From: Escherichia coli
GTDB taxonomy: Bacteria; Pseudomonadota; Gammaproteobacteria; Enterobacterales; Enterobacteriaceae
DNA length: 64,000 nucleotides
Assembly: GCF_003018255.1 (NCBI RefSeq)
Contig: NZ_CP027440.1
Direction: 5' to 3' (one strand)
Shown: positions 14,586-53,893 of the stretch, piece after piece
How positions within the stretch are numbered: the first letter of the stretch is position 1
Layout: the number at the start of each line of letters is the position of its first letter
Position numbers and translations under genes: made by a program
Notes under the pieces: generated by a model
The model's database searches: none
Told to the model about the DNA's origin: nothing
The model's input: only the letters and a program-made list of their open reading frames with translations

Positions 14586-16127
<1,542 letters not shown>

Positions 16128-16195
16128 CCTTAAAGAAGCGTACTTTGCAGTGCTCACACAGATTGTCTGATGAAAATGAGCAGTAAAACCTCTAC

Positions 16196-16272
<77 letters not shown>

Positions 16273-16314
16273 AATTTGCACGGCAAATTTGAAGAGGTTT
16301 TAACTACATGTTAT

Positions 16315-16390
16315 GGGGCTATAGCTCAGCTGGGAGAGCGCCTGCTTTGCACGCAGGAGGTCTGCGGTTCGATCCCGCATAGCTCCACCA
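16315..16390 (+). tRNA. alaT: tRNA-Ala (anticodon TGC) in the 16S-23S spacer
   Basis: ggggctatagctcagctgggagagcgcctgctttgcacgcaggaggtctgcggttcgatcccgcatagctccacca. Confidence 0.97.
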
Positions 16391-16564
16391 TCTCTGTAGT
16401 GATTAAATAAAAAATACTTCAGAGTGTACCTGCAAAGGTTCACTGCGAAGTTTTGCTCTTTAAAAATCTGGATCAAGCTGAAAATTGAAACACTGAACAA
16501 CGAAAGTTGTTCGTGAGTCTCTCAAATTTTCGCAACTCTGAAGTGAAACATCTTCGGGTTGTGA

Positions 16565-19470
<2,906 letters not shown>

Positions 19471-19567
19471 ACAACGCCGAAGATGTTTTGGCGGATGAGA
19501 GAAGATTTTCAGCCTGATACAGATTAAATCGACATGTCATAACGAGACGTGTTGATAAAACAGAATT

Positions 19568-19687
19568 TGCCTGGCGGCCTTAGCGCGGTGGTCCCACCTG
19601 ACCCCATGCCGAACTCAGAAGTGAAACGCCGTAGCGCCGATGGTAGTGTGGGGTCTCCCCATGCGAGAGTAGGGAACTGCCAGGCAT
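19568..19687 (+). rRNA. rrfA: 5S ribosomal RNA
   Basis: tgcctggcggccttagcgcggtggtcccacctgacccc ... gggaactgccaggcat; 120 nt. Confidence 0.97.
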
Positions 19688-25484: not shown

Positions 25485-25715
25485 AGACAGTGCGCTAAAG
25501 AAGCGCAAGGCGCCGATTTTAGCAGAAAACGCCCCAAATAACGGATGATCCTTAAGGAGAAAAATAATTCATATATATCCACATTAGAAAAAATCCCATT
25601 ATCACAATTATTAGGGATGGCTTTATATTTAACTGTATGAAAAGCAAAGACAAATATCATGCTGTAAAAAGCATGATAATAAATTAAAAGCGATGTAAAT
25701 AATTTATGCACAAAG

Positions 25716-25724
25716 TTATCCACA
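25716..25724. promoter_or_regulatory. DnaA box (ttatccaca) in the polA upstream region
   Basis: Exact 9-mer consensus about 125 bp upstream of the polA start within AT-rich promoter DNA. Confidence 0.45.
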
Positions 25725-25847
25725 TGACGATTTGCGAGCGATCCAGAAGATCTACAAAAGATTTTCACGAAAAGCGGTGAAAAACTCATGTTTTCATCCT
25801 GTCTGTGGCATCCTTTACCCATAATCTGATAAACAGGCACGGACATT

Positions 25848-28634
25848 ATGGTTCAGATCCCCCAAAATCCACTTATCCTTGTAGATGGTTCATCTTATCT
25901 TTATCGCGCATATCACGCGTTTCCCCCGCTGACTAACAGCGCAGGCGAGCCGACCGGTGCGATGTATGGTGTCCTCAACATGCTGCGCAGTCTAATCATG
26001 CAATATAAACCGACGCATGCAGCGGTGGTCTTTGACGCCAAGGGAAAAACCTTTCGTGATGAACTGTTTGAACATTACAAATCACATCGCCCGCCAATGC
26101 CGGACGATCTGCGTGCACAAATCGAACCCTTGCACGCGATGGTTAAAGCGATGGGACTGCCGCTGCTGGCGGTTTCTGGCGTAGAAGCGGACGACGTTAT
26201 CGGTACTCTGGCGCGGGAAGCCGAAAAAGCCGGGCGTCCGGTGCTGATAAGCACAGGCGATAAAGATATGGCGCAGCTGGTGACGCCAAATATTACGCTT
26301 ATCAATACCATGACGAATACCATCCTCGGCCCGGAAGAGGTGGTGAATAAGTACGGCGTGCCGCCAGAACTGATCATCGACTTCCTGGCGCTGATGGGTG
26401 ACTCCTCTGATAACATCCCTGGCGTACCGGGCGTTGGTGAAAAAACCGCGCAAGCATTGCTACAAGGTCTTGGCGGACTGGATACGCTGTATGCCGAGCC
26501 AGAAAAAATTGCTGGGTTGAGCTTCCGTGGCGCGAAAACAATGGCGGCGAAGCTCGAGCAAAACAAAGAAGTGGCTTATCTCTCTTACCAGCTGGCGACG
26601 ATTAAAACCGACGTTGAACTGGAGCTGACCTGTGAACAACTGGAAGTGCAGCCACCGGTGGCAGAAGAGTTGTTAGGGCTGTTCAAAAAGTATGAGTTCA
26701 AACGCTGGACTGCTGATGTCGAAGCGGGCAAATGGTTACAGGCCAAAGGGGCAAAACCAGCCGCGAAGCCGCAGGAAACCAGTGTTGTAGACGAAGCGCC
26801 AGAAGTGACGGCAACGGTGATTTCTTATGACAACTACGTCACCATCCTTGATGAAGAAACACTGAAAGCGTGGATTGCGAAGCTGGAAAAAGCGCCGGTA
26901 TTTGCATTTGATACCGAAACCGACAGCCTTGATAACATCTCTGCTAACCTGGTCGGGCTTTCTTTTGCTATCGAGCCAGGCGTAGCGGCATATATTCCGG
27001 TTGCTCATGATTATCTTGATGCGCCCGATCAAATCTCTCGCGAGCGTGCACTCGAGTTGCTAAAACCGCTGCTGGAAGATGAAAAGGCGCTGAAGGTTGG
27101 GCAAAACCTGAAATACGATCGCGGTATTCTGGCGAATTACGGCATTGAGCTGCGTGGGATTGCGTTTGATACCATGCTGGAGTCCTACATTCTCAATAGC
27201 GTTGCCGGGCGTCACGATATGGACAGCCTCGCGGAACGTTGGTTGAAGCACAAAACCATCACTTTTGAAGAGATTGCGGGTAAAGGCAAAAATCAACTGA
27301 CCTTTAACCAGATTGCCCTCGAAGAGGCCGGACGTTACGCCGCCGAAGATGCAGATGTCACCTTGCAGTTGCATCTGAAAATGTGGCCGGATCTGCAAAA
27401 ACACAAAGGGCCGTTGAACGTCTTCGAGAATATCGAAATGCCGCTAGTGCCGGTGCTTTCACGCATTGAACGTAACGGTGTGAAGATCGATCCGAAAGTG
27501 CTGCACAATCATTCTGAAGAGCTCACTCTTCGTCTGGCTGAGCTGGAAAAGAAAGCGCATGAAATTGCAGGTGAAGAATTTAACCTTTCCTCCACCAAGC
27601 AGTTGCAAACCATTCTGTTTGAAAAACAGGGAATTAAACCGCTGAAGAAAACGCCGGGTGGCGCGCCGTCAACGTCGGAAGAGGTACTGGAAGAACTGGC
27701 GCTGGACTATCCGTTGCCAAAAGTGATTCTGGAGTATCGTGGTCTGGCGAAGCTGAAATCGACTTACACCGACAAGCTGCCGCTGATGATCAACCCGAAA
27801 ACCGGGCGTGTGCATACCTCTTATCACCAGGCAGTAACTGCAACGGGACGTTTATCGTCAACCGATCCTAACCTGCAAAACATTCCGGTGCGTAACGAAG
27901 AAGGTCGTCGTATCCGCCAGGCGTTTATTGCGCCAGAGGATTATGTGATTGTCTCGGCGGACTACTCGCAGATTGAACTGCGCATTATGGCGCATCTCTC
28001 GCGTGACAAAGGCTTGCTGACCGCATTCGCGGAAGGAAAAGATATCCACCGGGCTACGGCGGCAGAAGTGTTTGGTTTGCCACTGGAAACCGTAACCAGC
28101 GAGCAACGCCGTAGCGCGAAAGCGATCAACTTTGGTCTGATTTATGGCATGAGTGCTTTCGGTCTGGCGCGGCAATTGAACATTCCACGTAAAGAAGCGC
28201 AGAAGTACATGGACCTTTACTTCGAACGCTACCCTGGCGTGCTGGAGTATATGGAACGCACCCGTGCTCAGGCGAAAGAGCAGGGCTACGTTGAAACGCT
28301 GGACGGACGCCGTCTGTATCTGCCGGATATCAAATCCAGCAATGGGGCTCGTCGTGCAGCGGCTGAACGTGCAGCCATTAACGCGCCAATGCAGGGAACC
28401 GCCGCCGACATTATCAAACGGGCGATGATTGCCGTTGATGCGTGGCTACAGGCTGAGCAACCGCGTGTGCGTATGATCATGCAGGTACACGATGAACTGG
28501 TATTTGAAGTTCATAAAGATGATGTCGATGCCGTCGCGAAGCAGATTCATCAACTGATGGAAAACTGTACCCGTCTGGATGTGCCGCTGCTGGTGGAAGT
28601 GGGGAGTGGCGAAAACTGGGATCAGGCGCACTAA
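25848..28634 (+). CDS. polA: DNA polymerase I (928 aa)
   Basis: ORF 25848..28634; 5' nuclease, 3'-5' exonuclease and polymerase motifs (e.g. [12 protein letters not shown]). Confidence 0.97.
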
Positions 28635-28782
28635 GATTCGCCTGAACATGCCCTTTTTTCGTAAGTAAGCAACATAAGCTGTCACGTTTTGTGATGGCTA
28701 TTAGAAATTCCTATGCAACAACTGAAAAAAAATTACAAAAAATGCTTTCTGAACTGAACAAAAAAGAGTAAAGTTAGTCGCG

Positions 28783-28891
28783 TAGGGTACAGAGGTAAGA
28801 TGTTCTATCTTTCAGACCTTTTACTTCACGTAATCGGATTTGGCTGAATATTTTAGCCGCCCCAGTCAGTAATGACTGGGGCGTTTTTTAT
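28783..28891 (+). ncRNA. spf: Spot 42 small regulatory RNA
   Basis: gtagggtacagaggtaagatgttctatctttcagacc ... cccagtcagtaatgactggggcgtttttta; intrinsic terminator; location just 3' of polA. Confidence 0.9.
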
Positions 28892-29860: not shown

Positions 29861-30104
29861 ATAGAGCGAGGACGCTAACAGGAACAATGACTCAGGATGA
29901 GGGTCAGGAGCGCCAGGAGGCGAAGACAGAGGATTGTCAGGAAGATAAACGTCCGGAGACGTAATTAAACGGAAATGGAATCAACACGGATTGTTCCGGC
30001 TAATGGAAAAACAGGGTGTGTTGGCGGCCTGCAAGGATTGTAAGACCCGTTAAGGGTTATGAGTCAGGAAAAAAGGCGACAGAGTAATCTGTCGCCTTTT
30101 TTCT
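29861..30104 (+). ncRNA. csrC: CsrC small RNA (CsrA-sequestering)
   Basis: About 245 nt with many GGA motifs in predicted loops (caggaa, caggatga, caggag, caggagg, caggaag, acggattg, caaggattg, tcaggaa), ending in terminator gcgacagagtaatctgtcgccttttttc; position between engB and yihI. Confidence 0.85.
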
Positions 30105-30171
30105 TTGCTTGCTTTCTGTTAGATTCCGCCGCAAATCTATACTGAATAAAACGGCTAAAAGACGAACCATT

Positions 30172-36790: not shown

Positions 36791-36930
36791 AAGCGAAAAC
36801 TGTGCCAACTTTTAAATTGCCCCTAAAAGGCGTTATCATGCTTAACATCGTGCAAAAGGGCTGCACCATGATGTGAATGTTGCACCAATATAGTGCTTCA
36901 ATGGAAACATTAAGCACCATATTGGTGCAA
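36791..36930 (-). promoter_or_regulatory. glnA control region: sigma-54 promoter glnAp2 (TGGCAC-N5-TCGCT) and upstream NtrC enhancer sites
   Basis: Minus-strand ttggcacagttttcgct at 36791-36808; NtrC-like palindromes tgcaccaatatagtgct (36881-36897) and gcaccatattggtgca (36914-36929). Confidence 0.75.
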
Positions 36931-37080
36931 TGACCTTTGGATAACCCTTTTTATGCTCCGTGAAAGCGATCACAAAGGGACTCTGCAATACTTGTTTGCG
37001 GAGGATGTTTGTGATCCTGTTTTGTAGTGCGATTAATCCGTGTACAATAACGCGCTATTTCTAATGCCTGAGGCAAAGTT

Positions 37081-48577: not shown

Positions 48578-49927
48578 ATGTCTGAAAAGTTACCCGCACC
48601 GCGTGAAGGGCTTTCCGGTAAAGCCATGAGACGTGTCGTTATGGGCAGTTTCGCAGGCGCGTTAATGGAATGGTATGACTTCTTTATTTTTGGCACGGCA
48701 GCAGGACTGGTATTTGCACCGCTGTTTTATCCAGACAGCGATCCTTTTATAGGTCTTATAGCTTCCTTTGCGACCTTTGGTGTCGGTTTTCTGACTCGTC
48801 CTTTAGGGGGCATCGTCTTTGGTCATTTTGGCGATAAAATCGGGCGAAAAATAACACTTATCTGGACGCTGGCTATTGTCGGTTGCTCCACATTTTTGAT
48901 TGGTTTTATTCCGACGTATCAGGAAATTGGCATTTGGGCACCGCTTGTATTAATGGTGCTGCGTTTGATTCAGGGCTTTGGTCTTGGTGGCGAGTACGGT
49001 GGAGCGGCATTGATGACCATAGAATCAGCGCCCGAATCCCGACGCGGATTTTTAGGTTCACTCCCGCAAACGGCTGCGTCTGTGGGTATTATGCTGGCAA
49101 CCGGTATTTTTGCTCTCTGTAACCATTTTCTTACTTCGGAGCAGTTTCTCTCCTGGGGATGGCGCATTCCGTTTTGGCTTTCTGCGGTGATGTTGATCGT
49201 TGGGCTGTTTATCCGCCTACATACCGAAGAAACGCTGGATTTTCAAAAGCAAAAAACGACGAATAATAAAGAAAAGTCCGTTCCTCCGTTGATTGAATTA
49301 TTCAAAAAACATCCACGAAATATTTTATTGGCACTGGGTGCGAGGCTGGCGGAAAGTGTCTCCTCTAATATTATTAATGCCTTTGGTATTGTCTATATTT
49401 CCAGCCAATTAGCATTGTCGCGAGATATTCCCCTGACGGGTATGTTGATTGCCTCGGCGATCGGTATTTTCAGTTGTCCATTGGTTGGATGGTTATCAGA
49501 TCGTATAGGTCAAAAAAGTCTGTATTTGTCGGGAGCAGGATTTTGTGTCCTGTTCGCGTTTCCTTTCTTCTTATTATTGGATAGCAAAAGTACGCTCATC
49601 ATCTGGTGCAGTATGATCCTCGGCTACAACTTAGGTCCGACGATGATGTTTGCCGTGCAGCCAACACTTTTCACCCGCATGTTCGGTACCAAAGTACGAT
49701 ATACCGGCCTTTCTTTTGCTTATCAATTTTCCGCGATTCTTGGCGGACTAAGCCCCCTTATCGCCTCAAGTTTGCTGGCGCTAGGGGGAGGAAAACCGTG
49801 GTATGTCGCTCTGTTTTTATTTGCTGTCTCAGTTCTTTCCTTTGTTTGCGTCTGGCTGATTGAGCCGACCGATGAACAAGAAACCGCTTCTTACCGCTAC
49901 ATCAGGGAACAATCTCATGAAAACTGA
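48578..49927 (+). CDS. MFS transporter of the metabolite:H+ symporter (MHS, ProP/KgtP-like) type (449 aa)
   Basis: ORF 48578..49927; MHS-like N-terminal motifs (GALMEWYDFFIFG, GHFGDKIGRK). Confidence 0.75.
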   Translation: MSEKLPAPREGLSGKAMRRVVMGSFAGALMEWYDFFIFGTAAGLVFAPLFYPDSDPFIGLIASFATFGVGFLTRPLGGIVFGHFGDKIGRKITLIWTLAIVGCSTFLIGFIPTYQEIGIWAPLVLMVLRLIQGFGLGGEYGGAALMTIESAPESRRGFLGSLPQTAASVGIMLATGIFALCNHFLTSEQFLSWGWRIPFWLSAVMLIVGLFIRLHTEETLDFQKQKTTNNKEKSVPPLIELFKKHPRNILLALGARLAESVSSNIINAFGIVYISSQLALSRDIPLTGMLIASAIGIFSCPLVGWLSDRIGQKSLYLSGAGFCVLFAFPFFLLLDSKSTLIIWCSMILGYNLGPTMMFAVQPTLFTRMFGTKVRYTGLSFAYQFSAILGGLSPLIASSLLALGGGKPWYVALFLFAVSVLSFVCVWLIEPTDEQETASYRYIREQSHEN

Positions 49928-50804
49928 ACGAAAAAACGAGCATTACCTGGCGCTACAACAGGCGTTTGACGCGCCATGGCCTGGGCCTGTAGGAGAGTTA
50001 GTGATGCTGGAAAAAGGCAATATTCACCTGCAGATTTATCCGCATGATGGTGCCAGGATAACCTCGTTAAAGGCATTTGGTTCTGAAGTATTACGCCAAT
50101 GGCAGCCGCAGCGCAGAGCTTTTCAGTATGGCTGTTTCCCAATGGTGCCGTGGGCAGGGCGACTGGGGAATGCGACGCTGAATGCTGGTGGGCAATGTTA
50201 TTCTTTACCCGCCAATAAACCACCACATGCGTTGCATGGTATGGCTTGTTACTCAACGTGGGAAATCATCGACAAAACAGCAGATTCCCTGACTTTACGT
50301 ATGCCCCTGGCTTCACCGTGGCCCTGGCAAGGGGAAGTGATTCAGACTTTTTTGCTGGAGAACGATGCGCTGGTTTTGCAACTGGAAGTCCATTCATATG
50401 CCGATACATTCCCGGCCTCCGCAGGCTGGCATCCGTGGTTTGCGAAAAAGCTGACTCCGCAAAATACAGAATCGTTGCAGGTGCTTTTTGATGCGGACTG
50501 GCAAGAAGAAGCGGGTAGTGATGAACTGCCAACTGGAAATCGTATCTCTCCTCAAGTCGGTCCCTGGGATGACTGTTTTGGTTTTTATGACGGGGTGAAG
50601 GTTAAGTTACTGTGGCCTGGTAAACTCGCGATGACCATGACCTCTTCTGCAAACAGTCTGGTGGTATTTGATAAACAGCCCGATGCCACCTGTATTAACC
50701 CGCTGACTCAGGCACCTAACGCAATAAATCTAACGCCGGAATTTGTGACACCAGATAAGCCGCTGGTCATCGAAACTCGTTGGCAATTTACACCTGAATC
50801 TTAA
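49917..50804 (+). CDS. Aldose 1-epimerase (mutarotase)-family protein, YihR-like
   Basis: ORF-track frame 49860..50804; start placed at ATG 49917 (MKTERKNE) after an RBS, overlapping the upstream stop by 11 nt. Confidence 0.7.
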   Translation: MKTERKNEHYLALQQAFDAPWPGPVGELVMLEKGNIHLQIYPHDGARITSLKAFGSEVLRQWQPQRRAFQYGCFPMVPWAGRLGNATLNAGGQCYSLPANKPPHALHGMACYSTWEIIDKTADSLTLRMPLASPWPWQGEVIQTFLLENDALVLQLEVHSYADTFPASAGWHPWFAKKLTPQNTESLQVLFDADWQEEAGSDELPTGNRISPQVGPWDDCFGFYDGVKVKLLWPGKLAMTMTSSANSLVVFDKQPDATCINPLTQAPNAINLTPEFVTPDKPLVIETRWQFTPES

Positions 50805-50811
50805 CCATTCA

Positions 50812-50850
50812 TCTATTGCGAAAAAGACAGTGAAATTACTCTGCTTTTTC
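50812..50850 (+). terminator. Terminator hairpin after the cassette operon
   Basis: ttgcgaaaaagacagtgaaattactctgctttttcgcaa inverted repeat. Confidence 0.6.
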
Positions 50851-50944
50851 GCAATCAGCATCACAAGATTACCCTTATTGCCACATAGCCAAACCCATCC
50901 TTTCCCGCTACAGTTAATTTCTTGTGGCGCGAAAGGAGGCAAAA

Positions 50945-51544
50945 ATGCTCTATATCTTTGATTTAGGTAATGTGATTGTCGATATCGACTTTAACCGTGT
51001 GCTGGGGGCCTGGAGCGATTTAACGCGTGTTCCACTGGCTACGCTTAAGAAGAGTTTCCACATGGGCGAGGCGTTTCATCAGCATGAGCGTGGGGAAATT
51101 AGCGACGAAGCGTTCGCAGAGGCGCTGTGTCATGAGATGGCCCTGCCGCTAAGCTACGAGCAGTTCTCTCACGGCTGGCAGGCGGTGTTTGTCGCGCTGC
51201 GCCCGGAAGTGATCGCCATCATGCATAAACTGCGTGAGCAGGGGCATCGCGTGGTGGTGCTTTCCAATACCAACCGCCTGCATACCACCTTCTGGCCGGA
51301 AGAATATCCGGAAATTCGTGATGCTGCTGACCATATCTATCTGTCGCAAGATCTGGGGATGCGCAAACCCGAAGCACGAATTTACCAGCATGTTTTGCAG
51401 GCGGAAGGTTTTTCACCAGACGATACGGTCTTTTTCGACGATAACGCCGATAATATAGAAGGAGCTAATCGGCTAGGCATTACTAGTATTCTGGTGAAAG
51501 ATAAAACCACCATCCCGGACTATTTCGCGAAGGTGTTATGCTAA
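50945..51544 (+). CDS. yihX: HAD-family alpha-D-glucose-1-phosphate phosphatase YihX (199 aa)
   Basis: ORF-track frame 50924..51544; start placed at [16 protein letters not shown] (HAD motif I). Confidence 0.88.
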
Positions 51545-52410
51545 AAACCATTCAGGACAAAGCCAGGCATCGTACCCGTCCACTATGGGCCTGGCTAAAA
51601 CTACTCTGGCAACGCATTGATGAGGACAACATGACAACCCTGGCAGGTAACCTTGCCTATGTGTCGTTGCTCTCATTAGTGCCGCTGGTTGCCGTTGTTT
51701 TTGCGCTTTTCGCCGCTTTTCCCATGTTTTCCGACGTCAGCATTCAGTTGCGTCACTTTATTTTTGCCAACTTTCTGCCTGCTACTGGCGATGTTATTCA
51801 GCGGTATATCGAACAATTTGTTGCCAATTCCAACAAGATGACCGCCGTTGGGGCGTGTGGGCTGATCGTCACAGCATTATTGCTGATGTACTCCATCGAT
51901 AGCGCGTTGAATACCATCTGGCGCAGCAAACGAGCGCGACCAAAAATTTACTCGTTTGCCGTGTACTGGATGATTTTAACGCTGGGGCCGCTGCTGGCAG
52001 GGGCCAGTCTGGCGATCAGTTCCTATCTGCTCTCCCTGCGCTGGGCGAGCGATCTCAATACTGTCATCGACAACGTGCTGCGTATTTTTCCGCTGCTGTT
52101 GTCGTGGATCTCCTTCTGGTTGCTGTACAGCATTGTTCCTACCATCCGCGTACCTAACCGCGACGCGATTGTCGGCGCGTTTGTCGCCGCACTCCTGTTC
52201 GAAGCAGGAAAGAAAGGTTTCGCGCTTTATATCACCATGTTCCCGTCATATCAGCTCATTTACGGCGTGCTGGCGGTGATCCCCATTCTCTTTGTCTGGG
52301 TCTACTGGACATGGTGTATCGTCTTGCTTGGCGCGGAAATTACTGTCACTCTCGGGGAATACCGCAAATTAAAACAAGCTGCTGAACAAGAAGAAGACGA
52401 CGAACCATGA
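51538..52410 (+). CDS. yihY: YihY/virulence-factor BrkB-family inner membrane protein (290 aa)
   Basis: ORF 51538..52410; multiple TM helices; overlaps the yihX stop. Confidence 0.88.
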
Positions 52411-52844
52411 TTGCATTAATTCAACGCGTAACCCGTGCCAGCGTCACCGTGGAGGGAGAAGTGACGGGCGAAATTGGCGCGGGACTTTTGGTGTTATTGG
52501 GTGTCGAAAAGGATGACGACGAACAGAAAGCAAACCGTCTGTGCGAGCGTGTGCTCGGCTACCGCATCTTTAGCGATGCCGAAGGCAAGATGAATCTCAA
52601 CGTGCAACAGGCGGGCGGCAGTGTACTGGTGGTTTCCCAGTTTACCCTTGCCGCAGATACCGAACGGGGGATGCGTCCAAGTTTCTCCAAAGGTGCATCA
52701 CCGGATCGCGCAGAGGCGTTATATGACTATTTCGTCGAACGCTGCCGTCAGCAAGAGATGAACACGCAAACAGGACGCTTCGCTGCGGATATGCAGGTAT
52801 CGCTGGTCAATGATGGCCCCGTGACATTCTGGTTGCAGGTATGA
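52407..52844 (+). CDS. dtd: D-aminoacyl-tRNA deacylase (145 aa)
   Basis: ORF 52407..52844; [17 protein letters not shown] and SQFTL motifs; 4-nt overlap with yihY. Confidence 0.95.
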
Positions 52845-53830
52845 GCCAGCTTCCAGGGTTGTCACGGGAAACAAGAGAGAGTATCGCTATGTATCACCTT
52901 CGGGTTCCACAAACAGAAGAAGAATTAGAGCGTTACTATCAGTTTCGCTGGGAAATGTTGCGTAAGCCCCTGCATCAACCGAAAGGTTCGGAACGCGACG
53001 CGTGGGATGCGATGGCGCATCACCAGATGGTCGTCGACGAGCAGGGTAATCTGGTGGCGGTAGGCCGACTGTATATTAATGCCGACAATGAAGCGTCCAT
53101 TCGCTTTATGGCCGTTCATCCCGACGTGCAGGACAAAGGGTTAGGAACGCTGATGGCGATGACCCTCGAATCTGTGGCGCGTCAGGAAGGTGTTAAGCGC
53201 GTGACCTGTAGCGCCCGCGAAGACGCGGTGGAGTTTTTCGCCAAGCTGGGGTTTGTTAATCAGGGAGAAATCACCACGCCAACCACCACGCCGATTCGCC
53301 ATTTTTTGATGATTAAACCCGTTGCCACTCTGGATGATATTTTGCATCGCGGCGACTGGTGCGCGCAGCTGCAACAGGCGTGGTATGAACACATCCCGCT
53401 GAGTGAAAAAATGGGCGTGCGCATTCAGCAATATACCGGGCAAAAATTTATCACCACCATGCCGGAAACAGGCAATCAGAATCCGCATCACACGCTGTTT
53501 GCCGGGAGTTTATTCTCGCTGGCAACGCTCACCGGTTGGGGGCTTATCTGGCTGATGCTGCGCGAACGCCACCTCGGCGGAACGATTATTCTGGCGGATG
53601 CGCATATCCGCTACAGCAAGCCGATTAGCGGCAAACCTCATGCGGTAGCCGACCTTGGTGCCTTAAGCGGCGATCTCGACCGTCTGGCGCGCGGACGAAA
53701 AGCACGGGTGCAGATGCAAGTAGAAATCTTTGGCGACGAGACGCCGGGTGCAGTGTTTGAAGGCACGTATATCGTTCTGCCCGCGAAGCCATTTGGCCCG
53801 TATGAAGAGGGCGGGAACGAAGAAGAGTAG
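52841..53830 (+). CDS. yiiD: GNAT acetyltransferase / thioesterase-fold fusion protein YiiD (FabY, 329 aa)
   Basis: ORF 52841..53830; 4-nt overlap with dtd. Confidence 0.85.
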
Positions 53831-53893
53831 GGGCGTTTTACTTGACTGAAAAGGTTTTCAATCTGAAAACCTTTTCTGGGCCCTGGTCCGGAG

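Follow-up and report, generated by a model that had tools for sequence, protein, structure and literature searches.

The locus studied here lies within a 64,000-nucleotide window of the Escherichia coli chromosome, and positions 50945 to 53830 of this window are occupied by four genes, yihX, yihY, dtd and fabY (also called yiiD or madA):

50945-51544, plus strand: yihX, coding for a HAD-family alpha-D-glucose-1-phosphate phosphatase of 199 aa (NCBIfam NF006991, 406 bits for a cut-off of 295, aligned over residues 1-199 of 199)
51538-52410, plus strand: yihY, coding for a BrkB-family inner-membrane protein of 290 aa (NCBIfam NF002457, 477 bits for a cut-off of 307, aligned over residues 2-289; Pfam PF03631)
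52407-52844, plus strand: dtd, coding for a D-aminoacyl-tRNA deacylase of 145 aa (TIGR00256, 256 bits for a cut-off of 101.5, aligned over residues 1-145)
52889-53830, plus strand: fabY from its principal start, coding for a protein of 313 aa with a GNAT domain and a hot-dog malonyl-ACP decarboxylase domain

The original prediction of a phosphatase, a membrane protein, a deacylase and an acyltransferase is matched by the NCBIfam and Pfam profiles, the acyltransferase being the GNAT plus YiiD_C hot-dog protein FabY (PF09500, YiiD_C, 170.6 for a cut-off of 27; PF00583, GNAT, 59.3 for a cut-off of 20.7). All four orthologues give full-length matches above the curated NCBIfam or Pfam cut-off, and the four genes are present in 5,425 of 5,426 complete E. 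coli genomes. This is a well-known E. coli housekeeping operon, already listed as yihXY-dtd-yiiD (PMC4421995), and its layout is common in bacteria and unsurprising. Both dtd and yihY also figure in the list of genes induced by acid shock.

The window shares its four genes, their order and the 7-/4-/4-nt junction geometry with the E. coli K-12 MG1655 locus (b3885-b3888). The flanks, in contrast, are different: in K-12, yihV-csqR precedes the operon and a gap of 852 nt follows before yiiE; in the window, two MFS transporter genes and an aldose 1-epimerase gene come before it, and an alpha/beta hydrolase gene and a toxin-antitoxin-like pair after it. Window and K-12 are identical in sequence solely between a point 68 nt ahead of the yihX ATG and the stop codon of fabY. 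Three features near these limits might mark the boundaries of the unit:

50815-50855, plus strand: stable, terminator-like hairpin that follows the aldose 1-epimerase gene (stop at 50804) and precedes the yihX promoter block
50886-50914, plus strand: putative promoter element, with -35 TAGCCA (50886-50891), a 17-nt spacer and -10 TACAGT (50909-50914)
53848-53876, no strand assigned: 13-bp hairpin between the convergent fabY and alpha/beta hydrolase genes (z = -3.0), a likely bidirectional terminator

The putative promoter, with a predicted transcription start near 50921, emerged from comparative alignment only and falls under the threshold of a consensus scan because just 8 of the 12 consensus positions match. 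Of the 23 aligned Enterobacteriaceae, 22 carry the block with hardly any change, only the Klebsiella sp. locus L028 being divergent. Farther upstream the sequences of the relatives are unrelated and often contain terminator hairpins; hairpin and T-run sequences also precede the promoter block in relatives, as the 50815-50855 hairpin does in the window (MFE -19.1 kcal/mol, z = -4.5, none of 200 shuffles being as stable). The hairpin at 53848-53876 is only a presumptive terminator since it has no clean U-tract, and K-12 carries a different hairpin after fabY because homology stops at the fabY stop codon. An Rfam scan of 49000-56000 (E ≤ 1) gave no match.

With respect to the junctions, the two overlaps predicted at yihX/yihY and yihY/dtd are real and coincide with both the PGAP and the K-12 annotations, which also agree on the yihX coordinates:

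51538-51544, plus strand: 7-nt yihX/yihY overlap, ATGCTAA
52407-52410, plus strand: 4-nt yihY/dtd overlap, ATGA

The ATG at 51538 is the sole in-frame start codon available to yihY. Among relatives, yihX and yihY overlap by 7 nt in 22 loci, by a 4-nt ATGA in seven and by 1 nt in two, and are separated by 3-174 nt in Serratia, Yersinia, Hafnia, Budvicia and others. Of the 67 loci compared in which yihY adjoins dtd (the window included), 46 carry the yihY/dtd ATGA, among them those of Vibrio, Photobacterium and Aggregatibacter. The TGA arises within the codons for the conserved Met-Ile start of Dtd (ATGAT). The intergenic distances in the window are -7 (yihX/yihY), -4 (yihY/dtd) and +44 nt (or -4) for dtd/fabY. 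The first two junctions are co-directional and fall inside the range of -8 to +6 nt for termination-reinitiation in E. coli, whereas dtd/fabY does so only with a minor ATG at 52841, the main start being at +44.

To our knowledge no interaction among YihX, YihY, Dtd and FabY has been described, and the four products differ in fold and location according to their NCBIfam and Pfam matches. Calling them functionally unrelated is fair so far as is known, and it is also typical, as just some 30% of E. coli pairs with close spacing encode subunits of one complex, about 70% not being partners (PMC10666635). The overlaps themselves are routine, since 707 of 2,987 unidirectional E. coli gene pairs (24%) lie between -8 and +6 nt, -4 being the most frequent distance (PMC10666635). 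A count from the K-12 annotation table over the matching 50 kb gives 8 overlaps among 33 co-directional pairs, or 5 among 30 once the three considered here are set aside.

At the third junction, several elements around the dtd stop codon must be considered:

52818-52868, plus strand: hairpin enclosing the dtd stop and the ATGA, with its 5' arm in dtd and its 3' arm in the spacer (-32.4 kcal/mol, z = -4.5)
52841-52888, plus strand: ATGA overlap and 48-nt K-12 'N-terminal extension', a non-coding-like spacer that ribosomes re-initiating after dtd may read at a low level
52871-52881, plus strand: purine-rich block ACAAGAGAGAG, the Shine-Dalgarno-like site of the main fabY start, with near-zero divergence in an otherwise variable spacer

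The predicted 4-nt dtd/fabY overlap stands in part. The ATGA exists at 52841-52844 and its frame is open to 53830, giving the 329-aa protein of the curated K-12 annotation, which would make three overlap-coupled junctions. PGAP, in contrast, places the start 48 nt further on, at 52889, leaving a 44-nt spacer after the dtd stop, and comparative data and published initiation mapping put the principal start there, so that the overlap depends on the annotation chosen. The ATG at 52889 (beginning MYHLRVP) is the sole fabY start conserved across about 70 Gammaproteobacteria, and upstream of it many genera show stop codons or frame shifts. It is preceded in distant genera by an equivalent RE(N/S)/GGAG motif, and its Shine-Dalgarno pairing is -5.1 kcal/mol in the window, the same as the median over 70 loci. 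The 48-nt extension has no codon periodicity: its divergence at codon positions 1, 2 and 3 is 0.18, 0.26 and 0.27, against 0.06, 0.03 and 0.42 in fabY and dtd, and its amino-acid identity is 61% versus 93%. Different reports point in the same direction. TetRP places the signal mainly at the +48 ATG of fabY (class '1. new site'), INRI-seq gives a peak of 67.8 in four replicates at this start, where a Ribo-RET peak is also found, and the GNAT domain of FabY was modelled from residue 19 (PMC8666670). The TRAINSPOTTER N-terminomics supplements hold no yiiD or fabY entry. Against all this, the longer protein has in its favour the open frame, the curated annotation and an in-frame ATG in all 28 ATGA-bearing loci; we regard it as very improbable and already largely refuted. 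The principal fabY start is ATG 52889, and ATG 52841 can be no more than a minor, secondary one.

The original prediction also extended translational coupling to all four genes. Such coupling is plausible, judging from spacing and near-absent Shine-Dalgarno sequences, from yihX to yihY and from yihY to dtd, but the claim is mostly wrong from dtd to fabY, where 44 nt and a separate Shine-Dalgarno-like block intervene; reinitiation in E. coli is nearly abolished by a spacer of about 38 nt (PMC10666635). The strong site at the head of the unit is that of yihX:

50934-50939, plus strand: yihX Shine-Dalgarno AGGAGG, strong, 5 nt before the ATG (-11.6 kcal/mol)

The median pairing for yihX over 61 relatives is -8.7, while yihY and dtd in the window reach only -3.9 and -1.9 kcal/mol, for a background mean of -2.65. 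Among relatives, the yihY median is -1.1 in 30 overlapping loci versus -5.8 in 16 gapped loci, and the dtd median is -4.3 in overlapping species versus -6.1 in gapped ones, contrasts that are inflated by shared ancestry since most overlapping loci come from one clade.

These overlaps could also be the passive result of compact packing, each gene being initiated independently on a polycistronic mRNA. Such overlaps are indeed very common, the Met-Ile start of Dtd automatically puts a TGA into the yihY frame, YihX and YihY can drift freely at their tails, and the junctions are not conserved beyond the core clade. Moreover, the region around the dtd start is rich in A and has unusually little structure (MFE -4.9 kcal/mol, z = +1.5), so that a de novo, Shine-Dalgarno-independent start without coupling is possible there. 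However, the loss of Shine-Dalgarno sequences coincides precisely with overlap, gapped genes having them, and four of the five native E. coli ATGA pairs assayed are coupled, bioBF being the exception (PMC6728339). We therefore consider passive packing unlikely. The measured pairs hyfHI, astDB, ydbH-ynbE as well as menDH (Huber et al. 2019 and 2023) are co-directional on one transcript and share a 4-nt ATGA, as yihY/dtd does, while yihX/yihY has a 7-nt overlap of the same phase. Coupling was measured in those pairs and is proposed here from sequence; most of them carry an intragenic Shine-Dalgarno that adds to coupling, whereas here it is nearly absent, and the products of this operon are not known complex partners. 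Less likely still is that the four genes are not one expression unit, internal promoters (in yihY or dtd, for example) driving dtd and/or fabY separately. In E. coli, operons with complex variants are frequent, and the 44-nt spacer with the strong hairpin at the end of dtd could be a point of processing or partial termination that uncouples fabY. Nevertheless, a sigma-70 consensus scan of the plus strand inside the unit found no promoter-like site, the literature lists a single operon, and the order yihX-yihY-dtd-fabY has long been conserved. A terminator scan inside the unit gave one weak match (a 5-bp stem in fabY, 53215-53228), the total number of matches being about that of shuffled sequence. 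The genes lie on the same strand, so close together that a terminator and a promoter would not both fit between them, which points to a single polycistronic operon.

The overall reading that we favour, and consider likely, is a one-promoter operon in which yihY and dtd are largely coupled by re-initiation and fabY is initiated de novo at 52889. Transcription would probably start at the single promoter just upstream of yihX and end at the hairpin after fabY. Ribosomes would enter at the strong yihX Shine-Dalgarno; yihY and dtd, which have no useful Shine-Dalgarno in this clade, would most likely be translated mainly by ribosomes that terminate upstream and re-initiate on the spot. The separate initiation of fabY would depend on a conserved purine-rich ribosome-binding block of its own.

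The ATGA at the dtd stop might nevertheless have some function. In an analysis drawn from 80 of 583 genome-collection matches, it is in frame with the main fabY start in all 28 loci that carry it, which belong to about five lineages and have seven spacer lengths. Loci with [GT]TGA are in frame in five of the seven scored, plus a Providencia locus (L034) checked by hand, while those with CTGA or with TAA/TAG dtd stops are in frame at about the rate expected by chance. Selection thus seems to see a second fabY start, since the ATGA is kept in frame in 28 of 28 genomes. This would be compatible with a dual start, the main one being the Shine-Dalgarno-driven ATG 52889 and the minor one the ATGA, used only by ribosomes finishing dtd, a proposal that we make tentatively and would sooner doubt than accept. 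If it is true, the hairpin at 52818-52868, in which the ATGA is buried, would bar free ribosomes from the second start. In relatives this hairpin is weaker and in other registers (mean z -0.95), and its covariation score is reached by 16-17 of 500 shuffles, within the range expected of related sequences that are under no constraint.

The peptide that the extension would encode is itself unconstrained in sequence despite the in-frame ATGA. The stop-free state of the 48 nt was rejected as evidence of coding, the +1 frame being equally stop-free (25/28 vs 27/28). The published lists of re-mapped or dual-start E. coli genes (TetRP, Ribo-RET, INRI-seq), which include uidR, speA and arcB, contain fabY (yiiD) with an in-frame ATG at +48. 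While speA and arcB have two functional isoforms, the upstream fabY start appears mostly unused and its extension holds no conserved peptide.

The overall weight of these results is small, as they confirm a routine operon layout. However, the curated start of K-12 fabY (yiiD, b3888) probably lies 16 codons too far upstream, as published initiation mapping had already suggested, and its revision touches the residue numbering and the expression constructs of FabY/MadA. If the dual start is true, the operon would yield a little N-extended FabY, made in coupling with dtd, or the in-frame ATGA would be a mere guard against out-of-frame read-through over the main start. The conservation of the ATGA in frame is a small illustration of the limits that re-initiation past a stop codon may set on the spacer before a downstream gene.

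The original prediction of a four-gene run, yihX-yihY-dtd-yiiD, is borne out by the ORF listing, the raw sequence and the NCBIfam/Pfam identities of four co-directional genes:

50945-51544, + strand, yihX: glucose-1-phosphatase YihX
51538-52410, + strand, yihY: BrkB-family membrane protein YihY
52407-52844, + strand, dtd: D-aminoacyl-tRNA deacylase Dtd
52841-53830 (ORF), + strand, fabY: two-domain protein (YiiD/MadA), GNAT plus YiiD_C hot-dog

All four proteins far exceed the curated cut-offs, and YihX, YihY and Dtd are aligned over their full length. This is a known and ordinary operon, already entered in the literature as yihXY-dtd-yiiD (PMC4421995). The 3.3-kb stretch is missing from just one of the 5,426 complete genomes of E. 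coli (found in 5,425), so that the window is E. coli chromosome, and the neighbours (rrn operon, Spot 42, CsrC, glnALG, typA, fdo and rha) fit the 87-88 min region. Rfam matches in the wider window comprise an rrn operon whose spacer holds tRNA-Ile and tRNA-Ala (14586-19685), Spot 42 (28772-28890), CsrC (29861-30114), ES222 (36892-36999, 3' of glnA, at the site of GlnZ in the K-12 annotation) and a SECIS element in the formate dehydrogenase-O alpha subunit gene (61554-61612, - strand), all of them as expected in this E. coli region.

Identity between the window and K-12 is confined to the interval that begins 68 nt before the yihX ATG and ends exactly at the fabY stop codon (50877-53830, against 25486-28439 of the K-12 locus L082); the four-gene unit is conserved, and the sequence on either side is variable and unrelated. 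Upstream, where K-12 has yihV-csqR, this strain carries a rearranged yih-type sugar cluster, whose two MFS transporter genes and aldose 1-epimerase gene run in the same direction as yihX; the genes for the second transporter and the epimerase overlap by 11 nt (49917-49927, PGAP starts), which illustrates how frequent such overlaps are. Downstream (53894-55633) lie an alpha/beta hydrolase gene on the - strand and a pair encoding 103 and 96 aa (55031-55342 and 55343-55633), whose stop and start codons are immediately adjacent. PGAP calls this pair a hypothetical protein and a NadS-family protein, and it looks toxin-antitoxin-like. The hydrolase gene and the pair are absent from K-12, which has an 852-nt gap at that place. 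Three elements border the unit:

50815-50855: terminator-type hairpin 5' of the promoter block, z = -4.5
50886-50914, + strand: putative promoter TAGCCA-17-TACAGT, inside the 68 nt shared with K-12
53848-53876: 13-bp hairpin between fabY and the convergent hydrolase gene

The putative promoter is near-invariant in 22 of 23 aligned Enterobacteriaceae, the sole divergent one being a Klebsiella sp. locus (L028), and the sequence 5' of it differs genus by genus, often with a terminator hairpin. Its conserved -10 region, GCTACAGTTAATT (50907-50919), has a C before TACAGT and TTAA after it, and presumably resembles a sigma-S-dependent extended -10. A consensus scan of the + strand within the unit found no promoter-like site, and its one terminator-like match, a weak one inside fabY (53215-53228), is equalled in number by shuffled sequence. 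We infer that TAGCCA-17-TACAGT acts as the promoter and the hairpin after fabY as the terminator.

Two of the three reported stop/start overlaps are confirmed. The 7-nt overlap of yihX and yihY (ATGCTAA, 51538-51544) and the 4-nt overlap of yihY and dtd (ATGA, 52407-52410) both agree with PGAP, in a 99.4%-identical strain, and with the curated K-12 annotation; for yihY, ATG 51538 is the sole in-frame start codon to choose from. The former is limited to the Escherichia-Citrobacter-Enterobacter clade. The latter occurs in 46 of the 67 compared loci in which yihY adjoins dtd (the window counted), a wide spread favoured by the unvarying Met-Ile with which Dtd begins, since its ATGAT provides the TGA.

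Across relatives these overlaps change more readily than gene order, which is retained in most Enterobacterales. In Dickeya, Pectobacterium, Brenneria, Photorhabdus, Xenorhabdus, Providencia and Morganella yihY is missing here, dtd directly follows yihX (loci L030, L031, L034, L041, L044, L060, L062 and related ones), and dtd is preceded by an obvious ribosome-binding site, AGGAG or AAGGA. The order is yihY-dtd-fabY in Vibrionaceae and yihY-dtd in Pasteurellaceae and the Gilliamella/Schmidhempelia group.

The translational coupling originally proposed is plausible, on sequence grounds, for these first two junctions. The Shine-Dalgarno (SD) sequence of yihX, AGGAGG, is strong (-11.6 kcal/mol), and the pairing of yihY (-3.9) and dtd (-1.9, the same in the whole core clade) is at or close to background, random regional 20-mers having a mean of -2.65. 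Among relatives, the median for yihY is -1.1 with a 1-8 nt yihX overlap (n=30) versus -5.8 with a gap (n=16), and that for dtd is -4.3 when it overlaps the upstream gene (n=48) versus -6.1 when apart (n=29); plain AGGAG or AAGGA motifs occur in species with separated genes. This contrast, whose size is inflated by shared ancestry, points the same way as SD-independent termination-reinitiation would predict. In published work, 4 of 5 ATGA pairs native to E. coli showed strict coupling, and reinitiation fell by 40-80% with spacers of about 14 nt and was nearly abolished by one of about 38 nt (PMC6728339, PMC10666635). A point against coupling is the unusually low degree of structure around the dtd start (z = +1.5), where ribosomes could initiate independently.

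The dtd/yiiD overlap stands only in so far as the K-12 annotation starts fabY at the ATG within the dtd ATGA (329 aa). PGAP places the start 48 nt further downstream (52889; 313 aa), leaving a 44-nt spacer after dtd, and comparative and published initiation data also favour this site. All four genes were mapped on 80 loci around dtd, one genome per species. The FabY N-terminus MY(H/Q)LRVP, from residue 17 of the K-12 protein, is present in all compared relatives. Many Enterobacterales and Vibrionaceae have stop codons or another frame in the stretch that separates the dtd stop from the ATG of this motif, which leaves that ATG as the sole possible start there. In 18 Enterobacteriaceae with the E. 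coli spacing, the 48 nt before 52889 are without codon periodicity, with pairwise divergence at codon positions 1/2/3 of 0.18/0.26/0.27 versus 0.06/0.03/0.42 in the fabY core (dtd being alike) and amino-acid identity of 61% versus 93%. One part of this stretch stands out: the purine block ACAAGAGAGAG (52871-52881), 7 nt 5' of ATG 52889, hardly varies and has a counterpart before the fabY start in distant genera (…RE(N/S)… or GGAG). SD pairing at 52889 is -5.1 kcal/mol, equal to the median over 70 loci, and -3.4 at the ATGA start. In tetracycline ribosome profiling the yiiD ATG at +48 falls in the class '1. new site', with signal chiefly at the new start (PMC4909307); INRI-seq gives it a peak of 67.8 over 4 replicates (Table S3) and Ribo-RET a positive peak in vivo (PMC9825163). 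The GNAT domain has been modelled as starting at residue 19 (PMC8666670). On this comparative and published evidence, 52889 is the principal fabY start; the choice of the longest ORF largely accounts for the apparent overlap of dtd and fabY.

Nevertheless, the ATGA at the dtd stop does not look neutral in its sequence pattern. Each of the 28 loci that carry GTA-TGA (or ATA-TGA) has a spacer, in one of seven lengths (26, 32, 44, 47, 50, 56 and 59 nt), that places the ATG in frame with the main fabY start, and 27 of these loci lack an intervening stop; the remaining loci are in frame at exactly the chance rate (13/39). GTGA/TTGA loci are mostly in frame (five of seven scored, plus that of Providencia, L034, hand-checked), unlike the four CTGA loci. 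In a Dtd+FabY tree, loci with the ATGA fall into about five lineages (core Enterobacteriaceae, Pantoea/Tatumella, Brenneria, Xenorhabdus and Morganella). The rough probability of the in-frame pattern, 10^-3 to 10^-4, takes lineages and indel events as independent and makes the pattern look stronger than it is, as the events are possibly dependent. Neither the wobble A of the last dtd Val codon nor the TGA stop varies within the core clade, in which just 7 of 103 comparable four-fold sites show such invariance. The simplest reading would be that, because some ribosomes re-initiate at AUGA, selection keeps the frame productive or eliminates the ATG, a hint of low-level re-initiation. In E. coli the site also sits in a predicted structure:

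52818-52868: strong hairpin of the dtd end and spacer, whose tip carries the dtd stop codon and ATGA; -32.4 kcal/mol, z = -4.5

Its 5' arm is coding and its 3' arm lies in the spacer. Relatives fold more weakly and in other registers. One pair only, in the small inner stem, covaries (C-G / U-A), and the covariation score, equalled by 16-17 of 500 shuffles, is of a size that related sequences free of constraint would also give. At the ATGA the hairpin could limit de novo initiation; it could also be an RNA processing or stability element.

Overlaps like those of this operon are not unusual at all. Spacings of -8 to +6 nt occur in 24% of 2,987 unidirectional E. coli pairs, with -4 ahead of all other distances, and partners of one complex are encoded by no more than about 30% of these close pairs (PMC10666635). 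By annotation-table count, 8 of 33 co-directional pairs in the 50-kb K-12 region overlap, including fdhE/fdoI/fdoH, frvR/X/B and rhaA/B. For fabY itself, comparison among relatives and three published data sets agree on a start 48 nt further downstream.
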